Source of the DNA: Cyanidioschyzon merolae
Lineage: Eukaryota
Strand: one strand, 5' to 3'
DNA: 64,000 nt
NCBI GenBank assembly: GCA_000091205.1
Contig: AP006493.2
The translations under genes were made by a program, and so were the position numbers. Below the pieces are notes generated by a model. It worked only from the letters and a program-made list of their open reading frames with translations, was not told the origin of the DNA and made no database searches. Positions 10,745 to 47,144 of this stretch are shown piece by piece (position 1 is the first letter of the stretch; each line of letters opens with the position of its first letter).

Positions 10745-11580
10745 TGGTTTCATCCACGTTGGAGAGTAAAGCAGGAGATCGAAATCACGATGCAATATTC
10801 CGTATAGATCGTAGACGGATTGTCTGTAGGATATATATTCTCTAGTGAACAGTGAAAGGAGAACCGCAATCATCATCCTTTAGCTCTGCCATGCCACGGT
10901 GCTAAGATAGTTGAGGAACACTGGATGAACGAAGTACATGCGTTCTGCGCCAAAAACCGATATTGTGAATGACTGCTGTTGTTCAATGGTGGATAACGAT
11001 CCGCTGATCACCACACGGAAAGCAAAAGTGAAGATAACAGCCACCAGGGGCGTGCCTGTTTCTCAACAGCTTGTTCGTGTGGTCCTGAAAACACTGGGAT
11101 ACAGTCGCAAAAAAGGGTCCTGGTTCATACACAGCCAGCTTCCATGGGAATCGAAACTACTACAGGTTTCCTGCGACTCAGTGATCGGCATGAAGCAGGG
11201 GAACCTTGGTTTGTTTTCCCAGTGGATGAGACTTGCTTCAGGTAAAATGGTCGAAGCGTATACAGGTATTCGTGCAGACAGAACCCGTTGTGTGTACGAT
11301 CGAGCTCGTAGAGAACGGGGACATGATCATACGTTCTACCTAAAGTGCATGCACTTGGCGACGTCAGTTTCGCTCGTAGACAAGGCTCATACAACAGCAG
11401 CAACCACTTTGTTGAACCATTGACAACTTTTTCCCTGACGTCCGGCGACGCCCTTCTATTAGACAACGTGACATTTCACGATGCCCTTCGCTTTGTCTTT
11501 CTTCCGCAAGACCTTCTCGCTCGGGGAACGCCATCACCTATGGGCTTGAAGCGGTGCATTCATTTTCAAAAATAAGAAAT
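10745..11580 (+). mobile_element. Decayed repeat module with a Tc1/mariner-like HTH remnant. It is a second copy of the module at 47145..47800 and is contiguous with the Fanzor-like fragment at 11590..12030.
   Basis: Its nucleotide and peptide sequence is similar to 47.1-47.8 kb. Shared peptides include 'GVPVSQ(Q/K)LVRVVL(K/E)T', 'MRLASG' and 'KAHTTAA / EGSYNRS'. The junction sequence 'ttcaaaaataagaaat' matches the 5' end of the 48.1-kb mini-element. Confidence 0.45.
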
Positions 11581-11589
11581 CTAATATTT

Positions 11590-12030
11590 GAGCTAGGGTG
11601 TAAACTTTAGAAGGTCGAGATGGAGAAAAGCCAGCAAAGCGCTCCAGCAATAGAAAAGCACGGAGGACTGACAGAGCAGCAAATTGCGCAGAGGGCGCGA
11701 GTTCTAATAATACATAAAATAGTCAGTTCCACCAGAGGCGACAAACGCATGAAGTTCGTGAACCGATTCTACAACTCCACCATCAATTTCAGACAGTGTA
11801 TGGCGTTGAAGACGAGGCCCGAGGAGAAGAGGCGGTCTAACTTTGTAGGGCAGTGTCTCAGACTCGAAGTGCGTCCGGACAAACTGAAACTGGTTGTATG
11901 CGGAAGGCCAAAAAAAGACTGGGAGGCCTGTGCACCTGGGTATCAATGTACCCTATATGGTCGTGGGTTATTTTTCGTTCCATTAATCACATTTTACATA
12001 CCTCAGGCTGTACATACTCCGATCTAATCT
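11590..12030 (+). mobile_element. C-terminal fragment of the TnpB/Fanzor-like family (degenerate RuvC-III 'VNRFYNSTINFRQC')
   Basis: The peptide 'DKRMKFVNRFYNSTINFRQCMALKTRPEEKRRSNFVGQCLRLE' aligns to the copy-A C-terminus 'DKKRMEFVNRDFNAAINIRRCAVLGNRPPE'. It also aligns to the 39-kb tail 'LKTRPEELTRSNFMGQNLRL'. A terminal-repeat-like sequence, 'aaagactgggaggcctgtgcacc', follows it. Confidence 0.5.
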
Positions 12031-13874
12031 GCTTCTCCAGCTCCGTTTTCAGCAGTCGATGGATGCTGATGACCGTTTTTAAGTCCCGGTGTCGCTGCTC
12101 CAGACTATGGTCTATGCATTTGATGAGTCGGCGAAAGCTGCGATCTACGCTTCGCCTGGCACACTCATCTTCATCGTACACAGCCTCGGTTCGCCCTTTC
12201 CAGCGATGCCACTCGGCTGTGATGAGGTATTGGCGTACGCATCCGCAACGCCTCCTCCTCCGAGCGCCGCCCCGTCGCACGTGAACACTTGCTTCGTCGC
12301 CCGATCAACGCCCCCTGACGGAGAGAAAAGACTTCCTGAAGTGTCCGTCTCCGTTGGCACGCTCGATGGCTTCCGTACCACGCGCGGGCTTCCTTCAGAC
12401 GACGCCCTCGGCGACTACTTTATCCGTTGAACACGCGCAAGCACGAGCTTTTCCATTCCATAGAGGTTTTTTTGTGTCACGCAATATTTCCCATGACAGA
12501 ACACCGCAAGGAAAATCTCGGACGGAGAGCCAGGCGTGGAATTTTGGATCTGTCCGCCTTCCTTGGTACGAAGCGGTGACACACGCTTCTCGGGAAGCGA
12601 TAGCTGCGGTGGCTGAAGTCAAAGTCTACGACCCTTTCTTCCTCGCAAACGGAAGAGATGGGAGCCTCTGGGAGCATATGCCGTAGGTGGATTCACACTG
12701 CTGTCGAATGCAGTTTTGTCCGTAGCCATAGATAAGGACGATTTGTCTGGCAAACCGAATCCAGTGCGATGCGTGAGAATTTGACTGAGCTTTCGGCATG
12801 AGCTTGTAACCAAGTCGTCACTGGTCGACGTCGAGCTTTTCATGCGGAATCTCGCTACGCGAAACGCCGCGCCAACGAGTTTCTTTTGAAGCAGAACGAT
12901 TGAAAACTTGCAGAATACGTGTTTTCAACATGTTACACTTATGACAGGGAGAAGCGTGGAGGCTTGTACATATGAATCGGTTGATGACCCAGGTTTTTTA
13001 CGAGCCCTGGTTCGAAGGCGTCGCCAATCATCCTGATTCCGGTGACCTTACCAATTTCAGAAGCAAAGCGGTGATGGAGCCACTCCAAAAACACAACCGA
13101 GAACGCTAGAACAACGTACGAATTCGCAGTTTCATTGCTGGTCTACTTTGAATGTCGAAGATGAGCTTCTAAAAAAATTTGGAAAGGCAAGAATAGAGCC
13201 AGCAATTCAGCATTCGATTTTAAACTGAAGCGGGTGTAGAGCGCGCCAAGCACCTCATGGTCCGCAGGCACAGCGACAATGCTTCGCGTCATCGACTGCT
13301 TTCGAGAGTGAATCGAACTTTATGGTTCACCTGTACGGGCAAGGTTTGTGACGTGTTCCAGCCACGAACGTCTGGCACGGTGCGGCGCATGGTGCTCCAC
13401 TCCTGAACCAGCAAGCGTGCAGGAATCGTTCGCCGATGCGCGCATGACGTGCTTACTGGCTTGGCAACCAGAATTTTGTGTGCAGCATCGGGTTCATGAC
13501 AGGAATGCAGAACTGATGAATTCCGGTTCTTTTCAGGACCAAGAGATGCAAAGCAGATCGCATCGCATTCTTATTGAATGAACACGATCTATACGGCCCG
13601 TTTCCGGAAGCGGCGCCCTCCAAGACCTAGACAATTCGGTGGAGAAGGTACCCTGTACCCTATGGACGCGAATACGATATCCCCTTGACAAGCAGGCGTG
13701 ATCGATGCGGTTTTCGATGGCTCTCAATTGTGCCGAGGCGCTCCGTGGATACGGTGGCTCGTCTGGATGCGCGTCGATGGAGGACTCGTATCGTTCATAA
13801 GGGATTTGCATACCAGCCCTGGGGGACACGTTGCGTCGACCGGTCTCCTACGAGCGACCTGTCGAAGCACCCTT

Positions 13875-16592: not shown

Positions 16593-17003
<411 letters not shown>

Positions 17004-17305: not shown

Positions 17306-18292
17306 CTACGCTCGCTTTTGATCGCGTCTGGAAGACGGCTTGGAAACTGACTTGCGCTCGACCCGGGAGCGCTTCGCGCAGTCAGGACGTCGTCGGGTGG
17401 GTCGCTTCGCGGGTACCAACTTTGGTGTTGGCACCGGCAATGGTGGCGGCTCGTCCACCACTAGTCGCCGGACATGCGCCGCTTCGAGGAAAGCGCAGCC
17501 GCATGGCCCCGGCGAATGATTTTTCCTTCTCATGATAAAAGGAAGCAGGGCTCCTGAGGTAGAATCCTCCTCCGGCCAGTCTACTTGCACGCATTCCTTC
17601 TCCAGAATCCGGGAACAGGTTGACCAACTGAACCGAACAATACTAGGAAAACCGAAAATCGGGTCCAGGTGCTTGCGGAGCCACCGCTGCGTCAGCGGGT
17701 CTGCGGGATAGCCAGAGCCGTACTCGCGCGAGAAACGCAGCTGTGGGTCATTCGCCTCCTCAGGGAAGGTCCATGTTCGAAGGGCCTTGTCTCGGGTGAC
17801 CTTCGCAATGATGCTAGCCGCAGCTACCACTGCGAATCGTGACTCAGCCTCGCTTTGGACAACGATACGAGGTATCTTGGGGAAGATGCGTTTAAGCCGC
17901 ATCTGGTACGCATCCGGCTCACCAACGGTGTCCACAAAAAGCCCTTCGATAAACATTCCGGAGGAAAGCGCATCCTTCACGAGCGAGATGGTGGCAGCAT
18001 AGCTGGTCTCGTTGAGGTTCACTCGTTTCCGCCCGAGCATCGTTGCGGAGAGCATTTCTGGACTCAGTATACGGGTCCTACTGTAGATCCAGTCCGCATT
18101 TTCTCCAAGGGTTTGAAAGATTCGTTCCCGGCACTGTGCCGAAAGCTTTTTGCTATCGCGTACTCCAGTAGCTTCCAGTTCCTGCAGGCGGCCCGCTTGA
18201 CACGCACAGCATGCATAGACAAGGGGACCTAGCACAGGCCCGCGACCGGCCTCATCAATACCCATAATGAAAGACTCTGACACAGGTTCCAT
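17306..18292 (-). CDS. RNASEH2A: Ribonuclease H2 catalytic subunit A
   Basis: The N-terminus reads 'GIDEAGRGPVLGPLVYACC', which carries the catalytic DE residues. 'DSKKLS' and 'VDTVG' are also present. It is a 328-aa single ORF ending with a TAG stop. Confidence 0.85.
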   Translation of the reverse strand: MEPVSESFIMGIDEAGRGPVLGPLVYACCACQAGRLQELEATGVRDSKKLSAQCRERIFQTLGENADWIYSRTRILSPEMLSATMLGRKRVNLNETSYAATISLVKDALSSGMFIEGLFVDTVGEPDAYQMRLKRIFPKIPRIVVQSEAESRFAVVAAASIIAKVTRDKALRTWTFPEEANDPQLRFSREYGSGYPADPLTQRWLRKHLDPIFGFPSIVRFSWSTCSRILEKECVQVDWPEEDSTSGALLPFIMRRKNHSPGPCGCAFLEAAHVRRLVVDEPPPLPVPTPKLVPAKRPTRRRPDCAKRSRVERKSVSKPSSRRDQKRA

Positions 18293-18669: not shown

Positions 18670-18896
18670 ACTGCAAGTATGGTCAAGCCTCCAGGTTGCC
18701 GCGTTCAGACTCGTCGCAGCGCTGGAACCAGAGCCCAGCGGCAGCTGTAGAGGCTCACCCCAGGTACCGTCAAACCTATAATTTGCCGCGTACAGACCAG
18801 ATGAAGAAATGCTGTTTCGGACGTGTGCACGACATGTTTACAAGGCACGTTCGAATCGATGCCACATTGCCGATATGTTTTGGAGCATTGATGCCA

Positions 18897-20330
18897 TTTG
18901 CACCCATGTCAGAACAGAATAGAATAGAACGAGTCCAGTCAGGGAACGCGGGAGAGCATATTCAAGTGGGAATCCCTTCCAATTGCTCTCAACGCGAGCC
19001 TTTGGGGGCGTTTTCGTCAACTGCTTACGTTTCCTCTCTATGATCGCTGACTTTAACGACGTCGGCTTCCGCTTTCCGTCCGACTCTGTTGTCCGCATCC
19101 GAAGGACGTTCATGGCAGCGTTCAAGTGCCCGATTTCGACGCTGCCGGCTGTTGTCTACGCATTTCGTGCACAGGCAAACGTTGCGATCTACGCGTCGCT
19201 TGCCATACTGTTCGTTTTGGTGTACAGTCTGGGTGCGGCCTCCGCGGCGGCGAAAAGTGGATATGGTCAGGTATGCCCGAAGGTCCACCACGCCTCCGTA
19301 TCCGAAGGCCGCTCTGTGGCGCGACAAACGCTTGCTTTATGACTTGGTACGAGCCCTTACGGGGTAACGGGGGCTTCCGCGTCTGCCATTCTCTGATTCC
19401 GCACCTGGTGTTGTACGCTACGTTTGCGAGCCTCTTCTGGGTCGCGATCCGAGGCGACTAGTCGGTCCGCTGCACGCGCGGGCGCGCGCTGCTGCATTTG
19501 TTGTAGGTTTAGAGATGGCGATGTTGTCCATGAGGAATCATATACCGTCAGGAAAATCTGGGCTAGAGAATCGGTCGAGAAGTCTGGATCCGCGTACGCT
19601 CACTTCATGTAGAGCCGAGAAGTACGCTACAATGGAATCCATCACTGTGATGATCGAAGACTGAACTGAAGACTCGTTACGATGGAAACGGTATAGACGG
19701 GAGCCTTTGGGAGCATATTCCCTGAGAGGTATGCTGCTGGTGGTGCTGGTGCTGGTGCTGGTGCTGGTGGTGCTGGTGCTGGTGGTTCCGAGGTCGTATT
19801 CGTCGTTGACCACACAAAAAATAAGACAGCTGGTCATTCGTGTCTGATCGATTATTGTTCGTGACAAGTCCAGTAAACTTGCGGAATGAGCTTTTGCGCA
19901 AGTCAGCGAGAGACATCGTCGAGTTCGTGCTCCTCGCGAGTCCAGCAGCGCGTATTGGTGCGCTCACGAGTTGCCCCGAAACAAAAATATCTGTATTTTG
20001 AAGCACTCATGATTTGAGCGTGCTCCAGGTAAGAAAAGGAGCAGAGTGGAATCTTGTGTGAACAAATTGATCCGCAGCATCGTAGATATGGCGAGCCCGT
20101 GTCCAACATAGTCACGAATCGTATTGATTCCGGTGGTAACGGGTCGCAGGAACCAGGCTTCCAAATCCGATCAGGAGTTCTGGAACTGCTTATGAGTCCG
20201 TGAGCACTTAGAACTGCGCATCGAACGCTGAGGGTGTAGATCTGAATGTGAGTTGGGGAGAAAAGCGGATAGCTTGGACAAAGCGCGTAGTTTCCTGTTC
20301 TTTTTTAATTTAACTCTGGTGTTGCACCGG
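18897..20330 (+). repeat. Left arm of a large inverted repeat, paired with 23545..24976
   Basis: Every ORF in this arm has a near-identical partner on the opposite strand in the right arm. The coordinate sums are constant at about 43873-43879. Examples are 19126..19461(+)=24412..24747(-) and 19964..20164(-)=23715..23915(+). Confidence 0.9.
19735..19790. repeat. (GCTGGT)n microsatellite inside the left inverted-repeat arm
   Basis: The sequence reads ctggtggtgctggtgctggtgctggtgctggtggtgctggtgctggtgg. Its partner at 24093..24139 is one 6-nt unit shorter. Confidence 0.85.
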
Positions 20331-21036
20331 GCGCCAGACCCGAGAGCCGCGCTCTCGAATAATGCGGACCCTGGAAGCCACTTAGGTTACTCATCGAACT
20401 AGGAATGCATCAACCAATCAGAAAGCAGCATCGGTGATCATGCATTCGGAAGCGTCGGCAGCTTACTACCCAGGCGTTCTCACTGAAATACCTCACATAC
20501 TCAATCAATACCGAATGGGATACACCGAGGGCCAGAAGCGGGAAAAAGATAAGAGCTTCGCGAGCGCTGCTTGTTGCTCGCAACCGCTGCTTGTCTGGAC
20601 GCATTGAAAATGACTGAAGGCCGGCTCTGTCTCTAAATCTCCGCCCACAACCCGCGATCCATGCAACACTCAGGCACGAGATATCGCCTTCCGGTACACT
20701 GCAGGGGCCCACATCCGCAACACAGAAAACTCCTTTTCATCGTTACGGTCGGTTGGTGTGTAGCATTTCCGTTGACTCGCTCACATCAGTCTGCGTTCAC
20801 GAATTGAAACTCTGGCCGCAGCGAATGGCCAGGACCGCCACACCTCACCAGTCTGGTCTCGTTGGAAAGCCTCCAAAGCATCCCTCTGCTCCTATTACGC
20901 GCCTCGTATCCGTGTGGTATCGCCGGCCAGTGCACTCTGTATCCGGAAAGGTCCCGGCGAACGGCATCGACACCCGTGTCGCAAAAGCGCCTTGAACGCA
21001 CACAAACACACGCGCACATAGATCATTGCGCAACGT

Positions 21037-21852
21037 TTGCTTCTAAAGCGTGCCGTCTGTTGCGGCTGTGCGACTTCGAGCTGGGCGGTGCCCGGACTAG
21101 GTCCAATGAGCAACGCTTTCGTAACCGGGCTGGAATCATGCAAGCTTAGGCAAAGTGTTCGCTTCGAAATTGAAAACGGTGCGAACGCGGAACCGCACGC
21201 TTCGCTGGACAGGTGGCGGCGTTCACCAGCTCTGGTGCGGAGGCGTACTCGTTCTCTGCGGTTGCCGCTTTGGCAACTGCGTAGGCAATCCGGCTGCATT
21301 CGAATTCGACTTCTGTGTGCAAACTCAGAACCCAGTTCGACTGGGCGACCACGAGTGACACCGTACCCATCACAGCGGGCTATTTTCTCGAACGATAAGA
21401 AAGCGTTCACGCCGGCGGAGCTCAACGACTTATTCGTACGATGCAACGAGCCGCCACGCGATGAACGTAAAATTTTACGTTGCTTGAAATACTCTTTCTC
21501 GGTAGTTTCCGCTCGTCTGCTTGGGAAAGATCAGCGCCTTGTTGCATTTGTGCGCAGTATTTCCGATGGTGTTATGAACGCGACTCTTTGGGACGTGCTG
21601 GTGGACCCGAATCTGCCCAACCCGGCCGTCATGCGTCGGAATATCATTCGAAGGATGCTGGACGACCTCAGTAGGGATATTCCATTATGCTCAGTGGCCA
21701 TGATTGCTCCGGAAGATCTCGTAATATTCTACGAAAAAGAGTGCGGTTTCGTGGCCGAGCCAAACGGTATCCGTGCGATGCGGCTGGTTCGTTGGCCGGA
21801 AAATCTCGATGAACTTGACCCTATAGAGACCGAAGACGGTGGCCAGATATAG
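21037..21852 (+). CDS. GNAT-family acetyltransferase resembling plastid NSI/SNAT-type enzymes. The start is uncertain.
   Basis: The C-terminal half, 'LVAFVRSISDGVMNATLWDVLVDP...IAPEDLVIFYEKECGFVAEPNGIRAMRLVRWP', is collinear with plant NSI ('[24 protein letters not shown]...[20 protein letters not shown]'). The N-terminal approximately 130 aa are arginine/serine-rich. Confidence 0.55.
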   Translation: MLLKRAVCCGCATSSWAVPGLGPMSNAFVTGLESCKLRQSVRFEIENGANAEPHASLDRWRRSPALVRRRTRSLRLPLWQLRRQSGCIRIRLLCANSEPSSTGRPRVTPYPSQRAIFSNDKKAFTPAELNDLFVRCNEPPRDERKILRCLKYSFSVVSARLLGKDQRLVAFVRSISDGVMNATLWDVLVDPNLPNPAVMRRNIIRRMLDDLSRDIPLCSVAMIAPEDLVIFYEKECGFVAEPNGIRAMRLVRWPENLDELDPIETEDGGQI

Positions 21853-23544
21853 GGCAGTGAGGCGGCGACTCGGAAACCGGCAAGTCGACCAGGATGAACA
21901 CGACTATGAGCCGGGACGCGAATCGGTGCTGTGCACCGCGAAATCGATTTCGTAGCGATCCTGTTTAAGCTTTGCTTGCCCACAGCACGAACGCTACGTT
22001 GTGACTTCGAAGCTGCGTCAGCGTTAGAGGATACGCAGGAATCGGTGACACTGCTACAATTCTGGTGCAGCGTTCGCCATGCGGGTCCCGATTCCGAGAA
22101 CGAGGTACTGTTCTGCGCACGGCACGCTCCTCTTTGAATGCAGCAAATTTTTCGCGGACGCAGGATCCGATAGTCTATCTGAAACGTCCCCGGGTGCGTG
22201 AGTGCCACCAGTAACCAGACGAAGGTTTTCAGCGGCTCAGGAGATGCACACGCTTTTCACAGATTCCCGGGTCATGCTCTCCGTCGGGAGTAGAGGTTCG
22301 ACCCATACAGCGACGATCCGAAACGGAGCGTATCGTGGTCGCTTACAGTAAAGCGGGATTCGGCGTCGCTGTGTTCGGCCAACAAAGACAGATTGGCTCT
22401 CGGTCGATTTAATGGTTGTCGAGTCAAGGTGCAGGTACAACAATGGTTTTCGAGAAGAGCGCGTTTGTCGGATTATAGCAAGTTACGCGACGAATCCGGT
22501 GACGCTGCTGATGCCTCTCGACGTACACACTGCCGACAAAAAACCGCCTGATGACCTCTGCTGCAGAGTCACACGACGACCCAATCTTTTATGCTTTCGA
22601 AGCAAACGTACCCAACTGGGAGGGTTGCGCGTCGTCTTCGGCTTCCAGATCCGGAACACTCGTGCTCTGGGTTGCTTGACGCTGCTCGTTGCACGAACCG
22701 GTCACGAGTATCTAGGAGGAATGTTTGTCGGAGGTCGCATACTACATTGATCAGTTTGGAGACGTGACTATTTCCAAATATGCGAATTGACACTAAGCAC
22801 ACAGAGGCGCTAAATCGTTTCTTGTGGCGAGTTTGCCTGCTCCTGGACGACTACAGCAAGAGAAGTCTGCTGTGGTGCCTCTCGGGTCCGTTCACGAACG
22901 GTTCTAGACTTTACCGTTCAGATGCTCATTTTCCATTTTCATCACGCAACCAGCGCGCTGTATTAGTCGTACAGTATATTCAAATTACGCATGGCATTCC
23001 ATGAATTGATAAGAGGCAGCCCTGAGTTGCTGTTGGCATATGTTTGGGACAAACGCCTGATGCAGCAATGGGAGACCATTCTCGCGCGGGTGCACCAGGC
23101 GCCATGCGTTGGAGCTCGCAGACGCCGCGCTATGAACTACCCAGCTCACCGGATACGCGCCTCATGCGGATTTTTGCGTCAATGGCCAGCTATCCAAGTC
23201 ACCGGGAATACGACGTGCTCCGCAAGGTAGGCTCGAACAGCGCGGGCCCGTACCGTACTCCACGTACGACGCACGATGGGTTTTTGACGTCCGCGTTTAC
23301 AATGCTGCTCACCATCTTTCGAATCGAAAGGTTAAGGAGCGCATAGTGCTGGGCAAGTGCACGTGGAATCGTTTTTTCTGCTACAGGATCGTTTACAGCA
23401 CCAACGCATCCGCGACTGCGTCGTTGCTAGTTGCGTGAGGGAGAGTGCCGACTCTTCTGTTGGAGTACAGGATTGTTTACTCCAATCAGGCTTTATCGAT
23501 TGCACGATAAAGCAGGCGCCTGCTGCTTGCATCCTGTGGCACAA

Positions 23545-24976
23545 CGCACTTGCGCAACGCCAGAGTCAAATTAAAAAAGAACAGGAAACTACGCGCTTTG
23601 TCCAAGCTATCCGCTTTTCTCCCCAACTCACATTCAGATCTACACCCTCAGCGTTCGATGCGCAGTTCTAAGTGCTCACGGACTCATAAGCAGTTCCAGA
23701 ACTCCTGATCGGATTTGGAAGCCTGGTTCCTGCGACCCGTTACCACCGGAATCAATACGATTCGTGACTATGTTGGACACGGGCTCGCCATATCTACGAT
23801 GCTGCGGATCAATTTGTTCACACAAGATTCCACTCTGCCCCTTTTCTTACCTGGAGCACGCTCAAATCATGAGTGCTTCAAAATACAGATACTTTTGTTT
23901 CGGGGCAACTCGTGAGCGCACCAATACGCGCTGCTGGACTCGCGAGGAGCACGAACTCGACGATGTCTCTCGCTGACTTGCGCAAAAGCTCATTCCGCAA
24001 GTTTACTGGACTTGTCACGAACAATAATCGATCAGACACGAATGACCAGCTGTCTTATTTTTTGTGTGGTCAACGACGAATACGATCTCGGAACCACCAG
24101 CACCAGCACCACCAGCACCAGCACCAGCACCACCAGCAGCATACCTCTCAGGGAATATGCTCCCAAAGGCTCCCGTCTATACCGTTTCTATCGTAACGAG
24201 TCTTCAGTTCAGTCTTCGATCATCACAGTGATGGATTCCATTGTAGCGTACTTCTCGGCTCTGTATGAAGTGAGCGTACGCGGATCCAGACTTCTCGACC
24301 GATTCTCTAGCCCAGATTTTCCTGACGGTATATGATTCCTCATGGACAACATCGCCATCTCTAAACCTACAACAAATGCAGCAGCGCGCGCCCGCGCGTG
24401 CAGCGGACCGACTAGTCGCCTCGGATCGCGACCCAGAAGAGGCTCGCAAACGTAGCGTACAACACCAGGTGCGGAATCAGAGAATGGCAGACGCGGAAGC
24501 CCCCGTTACCCCGTAAGGGCTCGTACCAAGTCATAAAGCAAGCGTTTGTCGCGCCACAGAGCGGCCTTCGGATACGGAGGCGTGGTGGACCTTCGGGCAT
24601 ACCTGACCATATCCACTTTTCGCCGCCGCGGAGGCCGCACCCAGACTGTACACCAAAACGAACAGCATGGCAAGCGACGCGTAGATCGCAACGTTTGCCT
24701 GTGCACGAAATGCGTAGACAACAGCCGGCAGCGTCGAAATCGGGCACTTGAACACTGCCATGAACGTCCTTCGGATGCGGACAACAGAGTCGGACGGAAA
24801 GCGGAAGCCGACGTCGTTAAAGTCAGCGATCATAGAGAGGAAACGTAAGCAGTTGACGAAAACGCCCGCAAAGGCTCGCGTTGAGAGCAATTGGAAGGGA
24901 TTCCCACTTGAATATGCTCTCCCGCGTTCCCTGACTGGACTCGTTCTATTCTATTCTGTTCTGACATGGGTGCAAC
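23545..24976 (-). repeat. Right arm of the large inverted repeat, paired with 18897..20330
   Basis: It is the reverse complement of the left arm. Arm-encoded peptides are more than 95% identical. Similarity ends at the sequences revcomp-matching 'ttttttaatttaactctgg' and at '...VLTWVQ'. Confidence 0.9.
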
Positions 24977-26003
24977 GCAAGTACTAGCAGACAGCTCGAT
25001 GCGTTTGCGAAGCAGCGATACCCCCAGTTGCACGAGCACGCTGCTGCTCCAGTGGCTATCAGCACGCGCATCCGGTGAACTCATGTCCTCGTCCGTGCCT
25101 AGACACTGCTTTTCGCAGTCGGCAGGTTTGTCGCGTGCAACGAATATCTGGAAACGCAGCGCCGGCCACGTCGAAAAGCTTTCTTCAGGATCTGCGTTTA
25201 TTTTCTGCTTTGGCGACGACACTTTGCGGGTTTTCAGACTGTCAGCCCCCGAAGCGCTTCAGAGGAACAATATCACTGAATGCGAACTCCAGTCACCTTT
25301 CATACAGCACGTCAAACGAACGCACCCGCACATTCCTTGTTTCGCTTCTATCGGCGGTGAGTCGTGGCATATCAAGCACTCACCAGCGTTACAGGCATCC
25401 TCCTCCCGACTGCTAACATGCTAGCGACACGCGACCAGACAAACGGACGGAGCAGCAGACGTTCTGAGCATAGATGCTCGTGTCCGCTCTCTGGCTACGG
25501 GCATTCCCGCGACACCCGATCCGTCAAACGGATGGATCGTTGAACGATCTGCATACCGATGCCGCGTAACCGACACCCTGTCCGCAAGATCCATTTTTAT
25601 ACAGAATCTGTTCCGAATGCCCTTCGATCCAGGGCGACCTGCCCACCAGCTCTGATCCCGGTCGACAGGGCGGGGTTTGCATCGACCCGAGCCCGGGTCC
25701 GATTCTGAGTCCAAAGCCCCTGTCCTATGGCGACGCCAGCGTTTCCGCATCAGTACCACCGGGGCGCACCAGGCGACGCTGTGTTGGCACTGTGTGCCGA
25801 AACGTCGCCCTGGAACGGGTCCAGCGTCATGGCGTGCGGGTCAGCTGGCCCCGATGCTGGCTATCGCATGTGCCTCTCTGGCCCAGCTCTTGTGGCACTT
25901 TTTCCCGAATAAATTTTGTTCGTGATTCGAGAAGGCATTCGCATCAGCACGAGTTGCAAGTGCGGGCTGGGGCGAGGCATTTGCACACCGCGGTGCGCAG
26001 CTC

Positions 26004-28562
26004 ATGCGCCACTGGCGGCCTCGTCGAGCGCACCCACACAGTCGAATCCTTTGGGTGTTTCTCTCTCTCTTCAACATATTTATCTGCTATGCTGCTACGG
26101 TCGCGCTTGGCGGAGAGGTTTCTGCACACGCATACGACCGGTGCAACTCATCCCTGATGGCAACGGCTGGCTTCAACGACAGTGCCGCACAACAGTTTGT
26201 CTTTCAAACAGCACTAGAATTGCTCTATACCAGTTTCGCATCATCAGAGGCTGCAGCGAGCCTAGTGCGCCGTGGATATGCCCATAATGTCCTTGAGTAT
26301 GCGGCCATGTTAGCGATGAGGGGCAACGCTTCCGACTGTCCCTTCTTTCGCGAGCTGCTACGTGAATACGGTACGGCCTTCGCTCGAAACCCCAAAGCTC
26401 TCGCCAGTGATTTCTTCGCTGCATTACCACTGGCGGCCGCTATCCATTACGGTCTCGAAAATTCTTGGATAACTGTGTCTGACCCTGGTCTCGACCCAGC
26501 AGTGATCCGTGCGGTCTGTAAGCCGGACTGGACCCTGCGCGGTGCGCAGAATCAAGCGATGATCAAGGCAGCCGGCACTGCGCTCTGTCTCGCGTCGATC
26601 CCTTCCCAGATTTTAGGCGGATCAGCCACAACCACGTATGCTGCGTATATCGAGGCAGTATGGGATGACTTTGCGGTACGCGCCCAAGGCGATACCACCG
26701 AGAATGCTCCGCAGTATAACGTGATATTTCTCAGCGGTTTGTGGGTCCTGGTCAACCTGAACCAAACGAGGTGCGATTGGCTACAAAAGTCTGCGAATGC
26801 CTTCAACATGTTCATGGATTTCGCGAACCAGGTGTCGCCCCTCGGTATACTGCCGAGTTACGGCGACGACGGACTCGGGACGCCGCTCGTTTTCGCTGGC
26901 GACTGGGCCAGCGTGCTGGCGCTCGCTGCGAAGCTCTACGCCGGCCACGTAACCGGGAGTGGCGACATGACTGCAGTGTCGCTCCTCGAGGCCGCGGCGT
27001 ATCGCGTCTGGCAGTTTCAAACTAGCGGGCCGCTCACAACCAAAGCTGGCAATTCGGTTGGCGTTTTCCTCCATCCTGTCCGCTCAACACAGCCGTTGTT
27101 TCACATGGCGCTGCTAGCACACCCAACATGGGCCGACTTGCGAGCAGGCGCTACTGCTGCTGTGGGCGCAAACAGCGCCGCAACCCGTGCAATTGTGACA
27201 GCGCGCGTGCCTCAAACGCCCGACAAAGTCATCGTTACCGCGACGGATGGCTCCGATGCCGGGAATCAGTCCCTTTTCGCCTGTGCGAGTGTGTATTCAT
27301 CGCCTTTCGCGTACCATGCCCATGCACAGCAACTGGGAACAATGGCCATGCTCTCGATGAACGATGCCGTACTTCTGTACGGCCTCGGCTACAATAATCG
27401 CCTCCAAAATCAGTCAAATACAATGGTGCTCGTTCCGCGTCAACAACTATCCATGCCCAGTGTCATGAATGGCATCTGGCAGAGCGCGATGCTCCCGACC
27501 GAGAATCTGGAGCCATATGTCGCCGGAATGTCGTTTGAGACACTTGCAACAGGTCTTCTGTCCCTGCAGCAAACCGCGAGTTTGTTGCGCAACTTCAACC
27601 GGACTGTGACGTTTCGAGTGCAGTACCGAGGACCCGGAACCGGCAAGCTTACAGTGCGCAACCTGAGGCTCGTATCAGGTGCCGGAGAGGAGCGCGCTGC
27701 ACCACTGCTGGCCTCCACGGGCATGCGCGGTGCGAGCGATAACGGTGCAGAGGTCGCCTTCGAGAACTGCGGCGGTGATGCGGTTGCCTTCAACACATAT
27801 GCCCTGCGCAACGGCAGCGTCACCTTCAGCGTCACCGAATACCCGTATGTTGCTTTTGATTGGAAGTTCGAGGTTTTTCCGAACACTGCTTGCGAGCCGG
27901 GAAAGCCACCGCCAGCTGGTGCCGGCAGTATTACCGCACCTTCTTACACATTGTTGATCTTTCGGGCATCGCCCTCGTCGCTATTCGATATCAACGTGCT
28001 TACGGACCCGATGCCTCGACCCCGAGACGTTGAGGCGGCGCCTATGACATCGCTAGGCGAAGCAGGATCAAGCCCGTGGCAGGCAGCCGCTCGGTATCGC
28101 ATACGCGGGTACGGCACAGCGGATACTATCTGGACCCGCGAGCTCTTTCTCTCGGCGATTGCAGAGCGGACCCTCCTGGTCCGTGACACCGTCGAGTGCG
28201 GCGACGCGCTCCTCCAGAGAGGTTATGCGTCGATAGGACCTGTTTGGAACTTTCTCGGAACCGCTTACCAACTGAACTCAAGTGACCGTACCGTATACAT
28301 ACGGGGCTTTCCCAACGCTGTCACGAAAGTTGCTCACGACGACCGCCTGGTAGCCGAAGTGCGCGTGCGCTCCAACACAACAGCTCAACTACAAGTATCG
28401 AACACGCAGCTCTTGTGGGCGAACGTTAGACCAGTAGTCGTTCGCGCTCAAGCTCCGATCACGAGTTCGCAAAAGACGTTGCGTTTTGAAACGACCATCC
28501 GCCTCGTTTCAGAGTCACCGGCTGGTGCGCTGTGGCACAAATACCAAACACTCGACTTTTGA
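26004..28562 (+). CDS. Large secreted or membrane-anchored hypothetical protein (852 aa) with an N-terminal signal peptide
   Basis: A hydrophobic N-terminus, 'ILWVFLSLFNIFICYAATVALG', is followed by a long uninterrupted ORF. There are many N-glycosylation-type sequons. I recognise no confident family; it could be a polysaccharide lyase or heparinase-like fold. Confidence 0.45.
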   Translation: MRHWRPRRAHPHSRILWVFLSLFNIFICYAATVALGGEVSAHAYDRCNSSLMATAGFNDSAAQQFVFQTALELLYTSFASSEAAASLVRRGYAHNVLEYAAMLAMRGNASDCPFFRELLREYGTAFARNPKALASDFFAALPLAAAIHYGLENSWITVSDPGLDPAVIRAVCKPDWTLRGAQNQAMIKAAGTALCLASIPSQILGGSATTTYAAYIEAVWDDFAVRAQGDTTENAPQYNVIFLSGLWVLVNLNQTRCDWLQKSANAFNMFMDFANQVSPLGILPSYGDDGLGTPLVFAGDWASVLALAAKLYAGHVTGSGDMTAVSLLEAAAYRVWQFQTSGPLTTKAGNSVGVFLHPVRSTQPLFHMALLAHPTWADLRAGATAAVGANSAATRAIVTARVPQTPDKVIVTATDGSDAGNQSLFACASVYSSPFAYHAHAQQLGTMAMLSMNDAVLLYGLGYNNRLQNQSNTMVLVPRQQLSMPSVMNGIWQSAMLPTENLEPYVAGMSFETLATGLLSLQQTASLLRNFNRTVTFRVQYRGPGTGKLTVRNLRLVSGAGEERAAPLLASTGMRGASDNGAEVAFENCGGDAVAFNTYALRNGSVTFSVTEYPYVAFDWKFEVFPNTACEPGKPPPAGAGSITAPSYTLLIFRASPSSLFDINVLTDPMPRPRDVEAAPMTSLGEAGSSPWQAAARYRIRGYGTADTIWTRELFLSAIAERTLLVRDTVECGDALLQRGYASIGPVWNFLGTAYQLNSSDRTVYIRGFPNAVTKVAHDDRLVAEVRVRSNTTAQLQVSNTQLLWANVRPVVVRAQAPITSSQKTLRFETTIRLVSESPAGALWHKYQTLDF

Positions 28563-33202: not shown

Positions 33203-36200
33203 CGGAACATTTAGGTACGTATCCCAGCTGTGATGATATGTACCATGTTTCGTTTCATACATCCATTACAGGAATGGTCTGCCTAACAGCGTAGGGCAAT
33301 TGCAGCATAGCAAGGCTGTATGCGCTGTAGGCAGAAGGAGCTGGCGTCAAGAGGTAGCGATTGCTGTCACGTTTTCTGCAGAAGAGCTATTTCGTCGCTG
33401 TAAAGATGAGAAGCATCATCGTATGCGCTTCGTGCATTCGTATCCGTGTCCGCAGCTCGAGACTGCTCCATTGCAGGTAGCTTGCGGATGCGGGAGAGCA
33501 CCCAAAGAAGGTGTCCAGCTCAGAAGCTCGCGAATTGTCGATTTTGAGACACGCTTCAGCACAGGGCGTGAAACTCGGGACGCAATGTGGCGAAATATCG
33601 AGCAACGAGGAACTCGATGCTGCGTCGAGCTTATATTTGCCGTGCGTACGACATAGGCAACTCGTGGAGATGCTTATATCCGCGGATTCGGGGTAATAAT
33701 GTTTACATCAGAGTCATATCGACATCTCGCGACGCGCACAGTGTCCAGAAACGAGTTGCCAGCGCCAGCTCCGGCACTGCGGTTTGCGCCCGGTGCATTT
33801 CGTGGTTCGAGTCAATGAACCGCGACTCGCATGGCTGGAAATACGCATAATGATTAGTACTTACGTCACATCGAATTCTTTAGCCTCGTCGCGCAATGCA
33901 GTGCTTCCCCATTTCAGTTTAGCAGGCCCATTTCGGAGGCATTCCAGACCGTTCGCGAACCAGTTCGCATAGCAGGCCAAGGCGTACGTGCCTAGAATGG
34001 GCTTCCAGCCACGAAGCCCCTTGCTTGGCAGCAGCGCAGAGCGGCTAACGACTTTGGCTCTGGTGAAGCGCTCTCTCCGAGCCACGCGTTGCTTCGGATG
34101 CTTCTGCCATTGAATACCATCGTGACTAACGCACGAACACAATCTGGAACGGCAGCGGTTGCTTGCTTCCAATAATCGAGCTTGTGTCAGCAAGCCATAA
34201 GGAAGCTCCTGGAAGTGCGGAACGACTTGTAAAGGGAGCTGGTAACCGCTGAAAGCTCGCTGCCCTGGAGAACGTCCAGCTTGACGTTTCAAATCCCGCC
34301 TGCAATCCCTGAGCCAGCGCACCCAGTGAAGGCATTACATGGAAACGTACCGAGAACAACCAAACTGGAGCAGTTTTGTATCCCAGTCGTATGACTACTC
34401 CATGTCACCGCTTATCTTATGGCGCACCCTTGATATATCCAGTAACATCGAAAAATGGAGCAGGAATCTCATTTACCAATCGTCCAGGGAAATCGATCCC
34501 AGTCTTGAGAAAGACAGCACTTGTGCATTGCGAGATCGCTGATCTGCACCATAGCGAATGCCCTGCTCCGAGCAAGAATCAAGTTCTCTCTCTCCTGACA
34601 ACTGCTTTTTTCGCCGTAAGTTTTTACGGGTTTAGCACACCGTTCTCACTGAGTATTCAAGGATTTCCTCGAATCCTCGCTCCACACACAAAGCCGCTGG
34701 AAGCTCCAGAAGCACGAATATTTTCGGCTGTTGATCGAGACGTTGAACTCTGGACGCAGAACATGTTTGCATTCACTGTTGCTGATCGATGCACAAAACA
34801 CCACGCCTTTCACTTTCGATCGCGTCACCATCAGACCTTCGCTCTGCTGACGATAATCTTTTTCGCCAAACCGTCTCCGTTTCACGGACGTCATCTCAAC
34901 CGGTTTCATCATATAACCAGGCTGGAGATACATGAATGTCGCATTGAATCCATCGATGGGAATCGTACACCATTGATGTCTAGACTCGTTGGGTGCCCTC
35001 GTCGAACGAGCTGAAGTGGAGCCCATGCTCGCTGCAGCAAGTCTGCATCCACTGGGTCCCATTAAATGACGTCATTTGTCGGTTACTTCCATTCCGACGC
35101 ATCGAAGGTTATGAGTGCTCGCTTCTTGCCTATGTAGGAACGAGACCGTTGACATCTCTCGCCCAGTGTCATGGCAGCCTATCAGAGATCATCCGCATGA
35201 GCTGTTTGGACGCACACGGACTCTCTGAATGAAGCGTACAACGCATCAGCCTCTGCTCGATGAGATGCTCAGAGCGTCGAGATGGTTCCAGACAACACAG
35301 TTTCGCTTACTGGTACGCTTCCTAGTGCTGATCATGTCCGACACCTAAGGATATCGAACCCTGAAATAATCAGGTCGCGTTGCATAGTGTGTACCGAGCA
35401 TAAGATGTCACGTGAAGTTTTGGTCCAAAATCGAATAGAAATGCAGACAGCTGGTAGATCATTGACCAGAAATTATTGCGACTGGTTGCTTGAAAAGGTG
35501 CGTCAAGGCAAGGGATGCCCGGCGAGAATCTCTCGAGTAGGAAGATATACCGTCCCTCATGGCGTCGTACAGCTCAAAGTTCGAAGATTATCACCCTGAC
35601 GTGTTTTACTACGGAATGCCTGACAACAGCATTGGACTGATGTTTCGGCTCCGTTACTTTTCCCTGGGTGTACTTCATCGTCCGTAAATCGGAACGATTT
35701 TCTCTTCTTTTTCAAGTCGTTTCCTCTCCGTCCCGTTCACCTGGCGGGCTGGCATAAATATGGCTGCTACCCTCTGTATCCGTTTTCCGTCTCGGAGCCG
35801 GAGACAGTGTGTCGAGGGCGCGTTGGAGGCTCATCTCCTCTATGCACGTGTTCACTGTTCCTGAATTATATTTCCGTTACGATCCCTTTTCGAGGATACC
35901 CATGTACCGACGAACACGTTTTCGTTCGCTCCCTCGCATTAGCAAGGAAGCAGCACATCTGTTTTTGGATATTGAACGCAGGAAAAACTTGTACAAGAAC
36001 ATTTTCTCGACTAAGATTGGTGCCACGGACATGAACGACCGTCCATAGGTATGTCAGGGCATCGACAAAAAATTTGGGAAGGAGCGAGACACAAGGAGAC
36101 CCTCTACGACGGAGACGGTGTTGAGCGATCCCGTCTGTTTCATGATTCGTAGGAGCACAGGCAACTGATTCGCCCGCTTCTGCTGAAGTTTTCGGAATGC

Positions 36201-39129: not shown

Positions 39130-39760
39130 GTCTGATTGGTTTGTTTGCGGCCTGTCACCTCAGTTGTGTTCCACCGCAGGAGCGTGTCATCAAAAGCTTG
39201 TTCGCGATTTATTAGAGATGCGTTCGAAGTGCGTTCATTTGAAGAAATGAATAATCCAAGGGATAGGCATGGGTATGCAAGTGGGGATCCTGGAAGTCTG
39301 GTGTCGCCAGTTGCCGGGAAAAACGAAAAAATCCTCTTCTTGCTGAGTATCAAGCGGAGAGGAGCATATGACGAAGAAGAGGACGCAGGGAGGCGATTGG
39401 CGACAGAAGGCGTTTGCCCGACGGAATGATGACGAGACTGCAATGAAAGAGAGGGCGCGAGTTCGAGGAAGCCGTGCAGTGGTGCGTTCAACCAAGGCAA
39501 AGCATGCAAGGAGTTCGTGAACCAAGACTTCAAAGCTGCCTTCATTGTGAGAAATGTGCGATGCTGAAGACGAGACCCGAGGAGCTGACGCGATCGAACT
39601 TTATGGGACAGAATCTCAGGCTCAAAATGTACAAGGAGAACTTGAAGCCGGAGCAGGAACTGCTCAAAAATGGCTGGGGGGCGTCTGTAAATGTGCAAAT
39701 ATATGGACTCTGTGGTTGCGTATCGTTTCATTCCATGGAACGTATTCGCAGATCGTAGCT
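39130..39760 (+). mobile_element. Internally deleted (MITE-like) derivative of the TnpB/Fanzor-like family
   Basis: An NLS-like N-terminal remnant, 'GDPGSLVSPVAGKNEK', is followed by a degenerate RuvC-III segment 'FNQGKACKEFVNQDFKAAFIV' at 39516..39548. The C-terminal tail 'AMLKTRPEELTRSNFMGQNLRLKMYKENLKPEQ' and the terminal motif 'ggggggcgtctgtaaatgtgc' follow. Confidence 0.55.
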
Positions 39761-46409: not shown

Positions 46410-46980
46410 ATCGATTTTTTTTTCAGATTTTCTTTTCAGATGACAAACCGTTTAGATTGACCAAGGATCCCAGAATTCGGAATGGATATTCGCCTTCGGG
46501 AAAGCGTCTACTATGAAGCACCTACCTTCATGTGTCATTACTTATACTTCCTCTCGGATATGCTGGTCGTTTCGTATATTCTATCGTGTACCAAGTGCCT
46601 GCCGTGAAGACACGCCGTAACGCGCTTATACCACTGAAGCAGATCCTGCACGGAGACAGAACGGCTTTGGCATACCACTGAGGGCGTCGGCTCGAGGCGT
46701 GATTCATCCGATACGGGGTCGGAGCACATAATCATTCTGGGAGCCTGCGACAGCGCGAAGCGATATACTAGGAGTCCACTGCGACCAGGGCGACGCTCAG
46801 ACGCAGCGTACGCACTCCTCGTTCCAGAATGAATTGCGTTGCGAACGAGTTGCACAGGTCTCGCCACAGCACCTGCCACTGGAGGAAGCATGAAGCACTA
46901 GCTAGCCCCAGACACTCGTCCGGCTCGCGGGACCTTCCGCCTCGAAAGTAAACTTTCGAACATACGGAAACTTTCCCCAT
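46410..46980 (-). repeat. Dispersed repeat 'X' of about 0.6 kb, in minus orientation. Other copies are at 57470..58060 and partly at 63260..63670.
   Basis: It is about 80% identical over roughly 570 nt to 57.47-58.06 kb. It starts at 'ttcgaggcggaaggtcccgcga' and ends in an A-rich stretch. The paired pseudo-ORFs 46538..46891(-) and 57713..57931(+) share '...PTPSVVCQSRSVSVQDLLQWYKR'. Confidence 0.8.
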
Positions 46981-47144
46981 TTCAACGCTTACTATCAAGG
47001 TCATGCGAAACTGTTATCGAGTTGCTAGTTAGCCGTTAGTTTCTGCTCTTTCAGCAATCTGTCGGGACTCACTATGATTCTGGGAGCCTACATGGCGATT
47101 TATGCGTTGCGATACGCTACTGAAACTGTAACAATGCAATTACG

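Follow-up and report, generated by a model that had tools for sequence, protein, structure and literature searches.

In the red alga Cyanidioschyzon merolae 10D, a single gene on the nuclear chromosome of 852,849 bp that bears the CMK genes is enclosed by two long inverted segments of nearly identical sequence. What kind of event places such segments on both sides of a gene? A preliminary description had proposed a transposon of the foldback or long-TIR type that had captured a gene, a cruciform-prone structure or an assembly artefact, and had named a local segmental inverted duplication as the alternative to a mobile element. We examined these readings using the repeat itself, the corresponding loci of relatives and independent assemblies of the same locus.

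Geometry of the inverted repeat

The window, that is, the whole stretch of 64,000 nucleotides that was analysed, contains the following features at and around the repeat; the two arms were delimited by repeat finding and global alignment.

17306–18292, minus strand: left neighbour, RNase H2 subunit A (BAM80633.1; Pfam RNase_HII, E = 2.9e-44), pointing away from the repeat
18898–20325, plus strand: left arm of the inverted repeat, 1,428 nt
19732–19786, plus strand: (TGCTGG)n microsatellite of the left arm, mirrored in the right arm at 24093–24141
20326–23553, no strand: unique spacer, 3,228 nt, with the SNAT/NSI-like gene and ~2.5 kb without an annotated gene
21106–21852, plus strand: SNAT/NSI-like gene, 248 aa, an exact match to the C. 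merolae 10D protein BAM80634.1 ('hypothetical protein, conserved')
23554–24975, minus strand: right arm, the reverse complement of the left arm, 1,422 nt
26004–28562, plus strand: right neighbour, CMK301C (BAM80635.1), likewise pointing away from the repeat

The arms are ~99.2% identical in the global alignment. They differ by 11 substitutions (positions 19005, 19119, 19207, 19609, 19610, 19684, 19793, 19987, 20040, 20312 and 20320) and by one 6-nt indel at 19741–19746, their sole difference in length, which falls within the (TGCTGG)n microsatellite; the length of this microsatellite also differs between strains. The arm ends are sharp, with similarity dropping abruptly on both sides, and the centre of symmetry lies at 21936.5. 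A match of such length and identity cannot be a product of chance, and no other repeat pair within the window exceeds ~82% identity. The near-identical reverse-complement arms, the 3.2-kb spacer and the centre near 21937 given in the preliminary description were all borne out, while its arm coordinates (18897–20330 and 23545–24976) proved right in position and off by 1–9 nt at the ends. The accession numbers run without a gap from BAM80633 through 80634 to 80635, so no protein genes are annotated within the arms.

The product of the enclosed gene matched the rice chloroplast serotonin N-acetyltransferase 1 (SNAT1; 6k5m, 7dai) with an E value of 3.4e-10 over residues 116–225, and 199 relatives of it were found at E ≤ 1e-3. 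The earlier label of an NSI-like GNAT is fair on the strength of the rice match, although BAM80634.1 had no match to Pfam families at E ≤ 0.1. The acetyl-CoA-binding motif Q/R-x-x-G-x-G/A (GNAT motif A) is absent from the protein: YQGQGLGKA of SNAT1 aligns with NLPNPAVMRR, and LP(D/N)Pxx(M)x(R)N replaces the motif in all 12 of the 12 closest relatives. The missing motif, together with the lack of a Pfam match, makes it doubtful that BAM80634.1 is catalytically active.

The repeat in independent assemblies

Over 25 assemblies built independently from metagenome or SRA data (samples from JGI, ENA and Logan) of strains 98–99.5% identical contain the same arms, ends and spacer, and both the flank-arm-spacer and the spacer-arm-flank joins were reproduced among them. 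The left arm is joined to the RNase H2A flank in contigs L014, L015, L016 and L045; in L025–L028, L030, L032, L033, L041, L047, L048, L051 and L052, it is the right arm that meets the CMK301C flank. Short-read contigs of ~3.3–4.6 kb are made up of the spacer and, on either side, an inner arm end, the two being inverted to each other (L007, L009, L010, L017–L023, L050 and L053); L007, L050 and L053 include 400–850 nt of both arms, inverted, together with the spacer on a single contig. Short-read contigs usually break at the arm ends, as a true repeat predicts, and one of them (L040) is a collapsed arm whose first base lies exactly at the outer end. The structure, with identical ends, is common to all the fetched C. 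merolae-type contigs that cover the locus.

If a single-copy segment had been doubled and inverted in the reference, the arms would be an artefact. The general risk attached to repeats, at which short-read contigs break, is what speaks for this reading. However, the arms differ by 11 sites and an indel, several of these sites are polymorphic in wild strains as well, and many independent assemblies show both inverted arms around the spacer, each connected with its own flank. The artefact reading is refuted by these data, and we give it practically no weight.

The locus in relatives of C. merolae

In two more distant relatives, whose orthologues are 82% and 73% identical, the genes for RNase H2A, the SNAT/NSI-like protein and the CMK301C orthologue occur in the same order and with conserved orientations. 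The intergenic gaps of these relatives measure 1.4–2.1 kb and 1.1–1.5 kb, as against 2.8 and 4.15 kb in 10D. Their contigs, one locus each from two lineages, contain no inverted repeat of at least 25 nt and no detectable homology to the arm. With the left arm subtracted, the gap between RNase H2A and the gene in 10D is 1,385 nt, compared with 1,381 nt in one relative. Since the SNAT/NSI-like gene has the same neighbours in relatives that lack the repeat, it stands at its ancestral place and was not captured. Judging from these loci, the repeat is apparently a lineage-specific gain around a resident gene.

Ends of the arms and further copies

The repeat is flanked by GATGCCAT on the left and by CGCAAGTA on the right. 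A check for target-site duplications at 18897 and 24976, as advised in the preliminary description, revealed no direct repeat of any length. The first bases of the arm are TTGCACCC and its last bases GGTGTTGC, with CCAT/ACCG flanking the left arm and CTTGC/CGCAA the right arm, and no TIR, LTR or Helitron-type ends were found on the arms. Neither arm has the TG...CA ends and 4–6 bp duplication of a solo LTR, or the 5'-TC...CTRR-3' ends at AT of a Helitron. Convincing microhomology was not found at the arm junctions, and the scanned arm ORFs and the enclosed gene yielded no transposase-like ORF or Pfam match.

A search for additional copies of the arm, in the fetched contigs, the metagenome collection and the window, gave no recent copy and one ancient copy; diverged copies may lie elsewhere in the 10D genome. 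All six matches to an arm 24-mer in the metagenome collection were at the repeat locus, as were all the contigs listed as carrying the arm ORF. The fetched related contigs contained no second recent arm copy, and the only further copy within the window was the following.

12004–13237, plus strand (as the left arm): ancient third arm copy (blastn, MAFFT; nhmmer E = 6e-68)

This copy, 6 kb upstream of the repeat, is ~61% identical to the arm (55–67% by block) over arm positions ~150–1425. The match runs to within ~20 nt of the inner end of the arm, nothing in this copy corresponds to the arm's outer 150 nt, and no similarity extends past the arm ends on either side. Because the similarity halts at the arm ends on both sides, the original arm and its copy are indistinguishable. 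The end of the ancient copy near the inner end of the arm hints at a discrete unit with defined ends, a feature more to be expected of a mobile element than of a random duplication.

The surroundings of the ancient copy are a mosaic of other ancient dispersed repeats.

Sequence exchange between the arms

Wild haplotypes were taken from short-read contigs, in which mid-arm haplotypes may be assembler mosaics; the case for conversion therefore rests mainly on near-spacer sites and on the 10D reference. The sites were chosen within 125 nt of the unique spacer because phasing is reliable there. At site 20201, T and A were seen 10 and 4 times on left arms, and 3 and 24 times on right arms. The corresponding counts were 10 and 5 versus 2 and 27 for G and A at 20287, and 8 and 7 versus 1 and 28 for A and G at 20312. 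Both alleles thus occur on both arms at these three sites and also at 20184; at 20320 the T allele alone does. An 18-nt insertion at 20125 is carried by the left arm in some strains and by the right arm in others, and the G at 20255, which is private to 10D, is present there on both arms. The shared polymorphisms, taken together with the 10D-private base on both arms, indicate that sequence is exchanged between the arms by gene conversion.

Coding potential of the arms

The candidate for a gene in the arms that we considered is the following.

19040–19342, plus strand: 100-aa ATG ORF of the left arm, mirrored at 24531–24833 on the minus strand; probably not a gene

Among 5.8 billion proteins, the only relatives of this ORF belong to its own ≥90% cluster, and it is not annotated at NCBI. 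All eight of its eight variants are non-synonymous and none is synonymous; moreover, the frame is shifted in the ancient copy, and mismatches between the arm and that copy are evenly spread over codon positions, with no periodicity. Between strains, the arms diverge by 0.4–1.1%, compared with 0.3–1.5% for intergenic and 0.13–0.65% for coding sequences. As this divergence is intergenic-like and not coding-like, the arms look non-coding. Rfam gave no match on the arms, and a tRNA search (ARAGORN) returned nothing. The earlier statement that the arms contain no convincing ORF holds.

We nevertheless weighed the possibility that each arm bears a functional unannotated gene, either this membrane-like ORF or a non-coding RNA, whose copies are matched by conversion as in the palindromes of mammalian sex chromosomes. 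The ORF is intact on both arms in every strain seen, its codon score (0.071) is the same as for the enclosed gene and falls at the ~95th percentile of the null, a borderline value, and the ancient copy is still recognisable whereas the intergenic DNA of the sister species fails to align. The arms may encode a short orphan protein or contain an RNA gene that has escaped annotation. However, the isolation of the ORF among known proteins, its variants, its disruption in the ancient copy, the intergenic pace of divergence, the empty Rfam result and the reference without an arm gene annotation make a gene-bearing palindrome very unlikely.

Orientation of the spacer

A perfect palindrome of the cruciform type needs little or no spacer, whereas the arms here are 3,228 nt apart. 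Cruciform extrusion and lagging-strand hairpin formation fall steeply as the spacer lengthens. A cruciform-prone structure at the repeat is unlikely, because the spacer disfavours extrusion.

Ten of the 12 arm-spanning contigs have the spacer in the reference order, and the remaining two, which may be assembly or amplification artefacts, have it flipped. In the latter (L029, JGI 3300050365, and L031, JGI 3300050369), the RNase H2A flank is followed by an arm and then by the spacer end that lies farther away in the reference. These contigs, together with the recombination between arms that is demonstrated by the shared near-spacer alleles, raise the question of whether crossover between the arms flips the 3.2-kb segment appreciably often, with both orientations coexisting and possibly serving regulation. 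Homologous recombination is efficient in C. merolae. For this alga, a sexual cycle that includes meiotic recombination is reported (PMC13353863), which also counts in favour of an invertible segment. Against it, not one of seven contigs from the right flank is flipped, and the arm in L029 and L031 matches the right-arm type over its whole length, as predicted by an assembler path switch in the identical outer 220 nt; unrelated chimeric junctions occur at 21035–21070 in the same sample series. Artefacts of assembly or amplification account for the two flipped contigs equally well. Furthermore, no recombinase-like ORF or Pfam match came up at the repeat or next to it when the arm ORFs, the enclosed gene and both flanking genes were scanned, and the orientation should matter little to a gene that lies, with its upstream 780 nt, entirely within the spacer. 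We consider frequent inversion unlikely.

The two flipped contigs, combined with the ancient copy that shares an arm boundary, suggest a broader version of this reading, in which a recombinase-free nuclear flip-flop segregates in both orientations in natural C. merolae populations and the arm is a repeat unit with defined ends that had gone unrecognised. This combination is likewise improbable.

Mobile element or local duplication

Mobility could have produced the repeat in either of two ways. A foldback or long-TIR DNA transposon would be a mobile 6-kb unit with terminal inverted repeats of 1.43 kb and the acetyltransferase gene as cargo, and the geometry fits, with long, near-identical and sharp-ended inverted repeats around one gene. 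But the target-site duplication is missing, no transposase was recognised in the scanned arm and spacer ORFs, neither the unit nor the arm was found twice in the fetched contigs, and the gene, having the same neighbours and orientation in repeat-free relatives, is a resident and not cargo. The transposon with a captured gene suggested by the preliminary description is not supported and is close to refuted. Alternatively, a discrete non-autonomous element of ~1.3–1.4 kb could have landed twice, in opposite orientations around the gene, the copy at 12004–13237 being an older insertion. The existence of this third copy, the end of its similarity ~20 nt from the inner end of both arms, like a defined terminus, its position among other ancient dispersed repeats, and the agreement of the arm-subtracted gap with that of a relative all speak for two landings. 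Nevertheless, neither arm has a target-site duplication or terminal repeats of its own, the outer 150 nt are unmatched in the old copy, and two recent insertions 3.2 kb apart are improbable with no other recent copy found; the arm identity is explained by exchange, as seen in the shared polymorphisms, and does not need recent insertion. We regard two landings as quite unlikely.

The reading that we consider probable is a local inverted segmental duplication, in which ~1.43 kb of intergenic DNA that appears to be non-coding became doubled and gene conversion keeps the two arms alike. The lack of target-site duplications and of any other recent arm copy in the contigs and collection searched supports this alternative to a mobile element.

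Comparison with known inverted repeats

The large palindromes found on the X and Y chromosomes of mammals (e.g. human P1–P8) are subject to gene conversion between their arms (PMC8600007, PMC8327919, bioRxiv 10.1101/800185). The C. merolae repeat resembles them in its inverted arms of >99% identity, its unique spacer and the upholding of identity by exchange. It differs in size, with arms of 1.4 kb instead of 10 kb to 1.5 Mb, and in its setting on an ordinary chromosome arm of a unicellular organism with a 16.5-Mb genome. Large palindromes are defined by arms of >10 kb and multi-copy genes, whereas the present arms, at 1.43 kb, contain no annotated gene and their ORFs show no signs of constraint; the sole demonstrable gene is in the spacer. 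Nor is there a link to a sex or mating-type region, the mating-type region of C. merolae being located between CMK076C and CMK078C in another part of this chromosome (PMC13353863). The likeness is one of mechanism, not of size class or gene content.

The plastid large inverted repeat and the yeast 2-micron plasmid also have inverted copies that evolve in concert and a segment between them that is invertible in principle. Unlike these, the C. merolae repeat is nuclear, its arms contain no rRNA or other genes, and it lacks a dedicated recombinase such as FLP of the 2-micron plasmid; compared with such flip-flop systems, a coexistence of its two orientations would rest on 2 of 12 contigs that may be artefacts. 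Transposons of the foldback and long-TIR kinds share the long terminal inverted repeats and the short internal segment, but at the C. merolae locus no target-site duplication, no transposase and no other recent arm copy were found, and the gene is in its ancestral, syntenic position. The closest resemblance in kind is to inverted duplications generated by template switching or break repair, with a one-off local copy of intergenic DNA, sharp ends and no insertion signature; as the C. merolae junctions show no convincing microhomology, we can only infer the mechanism of formation.

Origin and maintenance of the repeat

The second arm may have arisen by a single inverted duplication event in the C. 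merolae lineage, via template switching or break repair. Later homologous recombination between the arms, mainly as non-crossover gene conversion, would have repeatedly wiped out their differences, and the ~99% identity would then reflect homogenisation and not youth. A rare crossover between the arms would flip the 3.2-kb spacer, with presumably little effect on the gene enclosed in it. The repeat is an ordinary and small one, and the class to which we assign it is that of inverted segmental duplications. With arms of no evident function, it is most likely a neutral structural feature of the C. merolae chromosome.

Structure of the inverted repeat

The window belongs to the 852,849-bp nuclear chromosome on which the CMK genes lie: two of its open reading frames (ORFs), at 21106–21852 and 52185–54341, are identical to BAM80634.1 and BAM80643.1, respectively, of C. 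merolae strain 10D. A repeat search of the window returned two colinear inverted matches, interrupted by a microsatellite length difference alone. Global alignment placed the arms as follows.

17306–18292, RNase H2 subunit A, left neighbour (BAM80633.1)
18898–20325, left arm
20326–23553, spacer
21106–21852, plus strand, enclosed SNAT/NSI-like gene, 248 aa (BAM80634.1)
23554–24975, right arm
26004–28562, CMK301C, right neighbour (BAM80635.1)

The arms are 11 substitutions and one 6-nt indel apart (19741–19746, within a (TGCTGG)n array), and the similarity drops at once outside both arm ends. The preliminary description had reported a near-perfect inverted repeat with a spacer around a gene, its arms differing by a few substitutions and a single 6-nt microsatellite length difference; both methods bore this out, and only the end coordinates had to be shifted, by 1–9 nt. 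The spacer measures 3,228 nt, and the centre of symmetry, previously placed near 21937, was computed as 21936.5, about 85 nt beyond the stop codon of the enclosed gene. Other repeat pairs in the window have identities of at most about 82%. At the four junctions, the search for microhomology gave just a 4-nt TTGC/GCAA coincidence, which is not significant. A literature search found no prior description of this repeat.

On the left-flank side, we also observed a ubiquitin ORF (16599–17003, plus strand, 134 aa) in which 58 residues continue past the C-terminal GG; this tail has no apparent resemblance to L40 or S27a, the ribosomal proteins to which ubiquitin is usually fused. Metagenome gene calls include an identical 134-aa product. 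The ORF could contain an intron after the ubiquitin unit, or encode an unusual extension.

The repeat in independent samples

To assess the assembly, contigs were gathered by exact-product look-ups with the enclosed protein, its variants and one arm ORF. Contigs covering the locus came from over 25 samples (JGI, ENA and Logan) and were 98–99.5% identical to the window, a divergence that agrees with the 0.71% reported to separate 10D from MS1, a Yellowstone strain (PMC13353863). Contigs of 3.3–4.6 kb consist of the spacer with the inner end of an arm on each side, the two being inverted relative to each other (409 + 427 nt of arm sequence in L007, about 690 nt per arm in L050 and 849 + 200 nt in L053). 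An unbroken path from the RNase H2A flank through the whole arm into the spacer is present in L014, L015 and L016, and the corresponding path from the CMK301C flank in L025–L027, L047, L048, L051 and L052. Many short-read contigs end about 40–140 nt from an arm end, and one (L040) is a collapsed arm whose first base lies exactly at the outer end; such breaks are the behaviour expected of a true repeat. The independent contigs with both arms inverted, together with the joins between flank, arm and spacer, rule out the assembly artefact that had been considered at the outset.

Synteny and the transposon question

A foldback or long-TIR transposon carrying a captured gene had also been proposed. 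The outer flanks read ...GATGCCAT up to the left arm and CGCAAGTA... from the right arm onwards, and no target-site duplication is present there. Terminal repeats, TG...CA ends and Helitron ends are likewise missing from each arm taken singly. A search with a 24-mer of invariant arm sequence matched six metagenome contigs, all six at this locus, and every contig among the matches listed for the 100-aa arm ORF maps here as well. A search for additional arm copies had been suggested; within the window, one old copy was found, at 12004–13237.

The most telling evidence against a transposon with a captured gene came from gene order. In two more distant relatives, RNase H2A (minus), the enclosed gene (plus) and the CMK301C orthologue (plus) are kept in this order on contigs unbroken across the region, the enclosed-protein orthologues being 82% and 73% identical to that of C. 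merolae. The intergenic gaps are 1.4–2.1 kb and 1.1–1.5 kb in these relatives, versus 2.8 and 4.15 kb in 10D, and their contigs contain no inverted repeat of at least 25 nt. Comparisons of the arms and both intergenic regions with the sister-species loci (tblastn, sensitive blastn and nhmmer) gave chance-level matches only. Since the gene order is kept in relatives without the repeat, the enclosed gene has not moved from its ancestral position, and it was the C. merolae lineage that acquired the repeat on either side of it. The transposon reading was therefore rejected, having failed with respect to target-site duplication, ends, copies in the contigs retrieved and synteny alike; the repeat is real and lineage-specific.

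The enclosed gene

The activity of the enclosed protein is a question separate from the repeat. The protein matches rice chloroplast serotonin N-acetyltransferase 1 (SNAT1; 6k5m) with E = 3.4e-10 and has 199 relatives at E <= 1e-3, in keeping, as far as homology goes, with its initial assignment as an NSI-like GNAT. However, no Pfam acetyltransferase domain was found in it, and the acetyl-CoA motif of SNAT1, YQGQGLGKA (Q/RxxGxG/A), is replaced by LP(D/N)PxxMxRN, at residues ~165–180, in the enclosed protein and its 12 closest relatives. With the motif replaced and no Pfam family assigned, the predicted acetyltransferase activity is doubtful, and the protein and its relatives may form a conserved SNAT-family branch that is non-catalytic or atypical. 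An apparent truncation in a '165-aa' haplotype proved to be an alternative start call only, the 248-aa ORF being intact.

Exchange between the arms

We then compared arm alleles among strains. The arm identity of a contig was assigned by its unique spacer end, and phasing by reads and k-mers is reliable for sites up to 125 nt from the spacer.

Allele counts at four arm sites
20201: left arms T 10, A 4; right arms T 3, A 24
20287: left arms G 10, A 5; right arms G 2, A 27
20312: left arms A 8, G 7; right arms A 1, G 28
20320: left arms T 8, A 7; right arms C 28, T 1

At 20201, 20287 and 20312, each allele occurs on left and right arms, and at 20320 T alone is common to both. At 20255, a G private to 10D is found on both of its arms, with C in 42 of 42 other arms. 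An 18-nt imperfect tandem duplication at 20125 (mirror ~23754), consisting of GATTCCGGTGACGTAGCG adjoining GATTCCGGTGGTAACGGG, is polymorphic among strains: most right arms carry it, as do three left arms (L015, L019 and L044), and it is missing from most left arms and two right arms (those of 10D and L042). Neither 10D arm has it. At 19599, 19690, 19830 and 19894, the 10D arms are alike and differ from all wild arms linked to the right flank. Because recurrent identical mutation at so many sites is implausible, these shared states point to arm-to-arm transfer, and gene conversion between the arms explains all of the shared polymorphisms. In their inner parts, the arms differ more from each other in most wild strains than in 10D, where left-type sequence seems to have replaced that of the right arm, apart from the last 14 nt of this arm. 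As mid-arm haplotypes in short-read contigs may be assembler mosaics, the argument for conversion rests mainly on the near-spacer sites and the 10D sequence. Given gene conversion, the arm identity of ~99% is no evidence of a young duplication, and the youth at first ascribed to the palindrome is no longer called for.

Orientation of the spacer

Among the contigs that cross a whole arm, 10 of 12 have the reference order and two, L029 (JGI 3300050365) and L031 (JGI 3300050369), are flipped, running from the RNase H2A flank through the arm into the far (right) end of the spacer. Both spacer orientations might coexist through crossover between the arms, and the conversion, which shows that the arms recombine, would in principle lead one to expect occasional crossover and inversion. 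However, the arm in both contigs is right-type along its whole length, and an assembler path switch within the identical outer 220 nt would give exactly this pattern; furthermore, none of the seven contigs starting at the right flank is flipped, and unrelated, mutually differing chimeric junctions occur at 21035–21070 in the same sample series. The two contigs may reflect a genuine inversion isomer, or else an artefact of assembly or amplification, and we consider coexisting orientations improbable. As regards a recombinase-driven switch, the Pfam scan of the arm ORFs, the enclosed gene and the two flanking genes revealed no recombinase-like ORF. One inversion between 10D and MS1 Ha3 is described in a 2026 Plant Cell paper, which does not state its position; for MS1 Ha3, PMC13353863 reports a T2T assembly from PacBio data.

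Six contigs of one series of small JGI assemblies (L025, L026 [12669–12874], L027, L031, L051 [1–22] and L052) end or enter unrelated sequence 40–70 nt upstream of the ATG of the enclosed gene. Junction sequences are present in L026 and L051 and are unlike each other, which points to chimeric junctions or to structural variation at this site.

Content of the arms

BAM80633.1, BAM80634.1 and BAM80635.1 are consecutive, and so no protein gene is annotated in either arm of the 10D reference. The longest arm ORFs are the following.

19040–19342 (mirror 24531–24833), 100-aa ATG ORF
19538–19837, minus strand, 99-aa ATG ORF

The 100-aa ORF has no homologues outside its own cluster of at least 90% identity, and each of the eight variants seen in it, whether in an arm or in a cluster member, is non-synonymous. 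Its codon-usage score, 0.071, equals that of the enclosed gene and ranks near the 95th percentile when set against out-of-frame ORFs; it is probably not a gene, though a coding role is conceivable. Between-strain divergence of the arms (0.4–1.1%) resembles that of neighbouring intergenic DNA (0.3–1.5%), unlike that of coding sequence (0.13–0.65%). The arm ORFs 19677–20006 and 23873–24196 have no exact product on record, and Pfam searches of arm and spacer ORFs gave noise only. Rfam returned no match in the whole window at the gathering threshold or in 18700–25200 at E <= 1, and ARAGORN found no tRNA. The arms are apparently non-coding, as the lack of a convincing ORF had indicated.

C. merolae centromeres are short and AT-rich; the GC content here is 53–54%, as in the rest of the window, the arms show no AT enrichment, and a centromere was dismissed. 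Cruciform or hairpin formation, raised earlier, is unlikely, the 3.2-kb spacer disfavouring it. The question of a source of hairpin RNA or siRNA for silencing does not arise, as RNAi machinery is missing in C. merolae (PMC11376382).

An ancient third copy

Sensitive self-comparison of the window revealed a third arm copy at ~12004–13237, in left-arm orientation, 55–67% identical in blocks and spanning arm positions ~150–1425 (nhmmer E = 6e-68). Its mismatches with the arm show no preference among the three codon positions, and a 1-nt gap disrupts the 100-aa frame, a pattern that does not look like protein-coding conservation. Past the arm ends the similarity is lost on every side, in both flanks and at both ends of the spacer, and the copy consequently gives no indication of which arm is the original. 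Its similarity stops within ~20 nt of the arm's inner end; this coincidence is the sole observation favouring the arm as a discrete repeat element, which we regard as a minor possibility.

The third copy sits amid a mosaic of other ancient repeats, pairs of which include the following.

10749–11488 with 47146–47875
11690–11983 with 39450–39736
54879–57914 with 60626–63696, 3.1 kb

Old dispersed or segmental repeats of 58–69% identity are abundant in the lower-GC intergenic stretches of the window (10749–13237; 39226–39795; 46428–48466; 54879–57914; 60626–63696; 34559–35363 / 41085–41894). Pfam searches of ORFs in the neighbouring ancient repeats matched nothing save an unrelated DnaJ gene. These repeats may be what is left of unclassified elements, or the members of a multi-copy family that has diverged.

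Discussion

The C. merolae repeat is maintained by gene conversion. We class it with the inverted segmental duplications whose arms undergo gene conversion, as a further example of a familiar structure and not a novel type of element, and nothing points to a function. Mammalian sex-chromosome palindromes hold arm identities above 99% via arm-to-arm conversion (PMC8600007, PMC8327919). The C. merolae repeat is like them in this mechanism, but differs from the mammalian 'large palindrome' class in size and gene content. Its concerted evolution also resembles that of plastid inverted repeats.

Among photosynthetic eukaryotes, C. merolae is valued for having one of the smallest and most repeat-poor nuclear genomes, and its strain 10D serves as a genetic model in which homologous recombination is efficient. 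The interval from RNase H2A to CMK301C calls for caution in gene targeting and short-read mapping. The repeat adds one more case in which high identity of duplicates may stem from homogenisation rather than youth, and, at 1.4 kb, it offers a natural gauge of how often ectopic recombination occurs in C. merolae and how long its tracts are.
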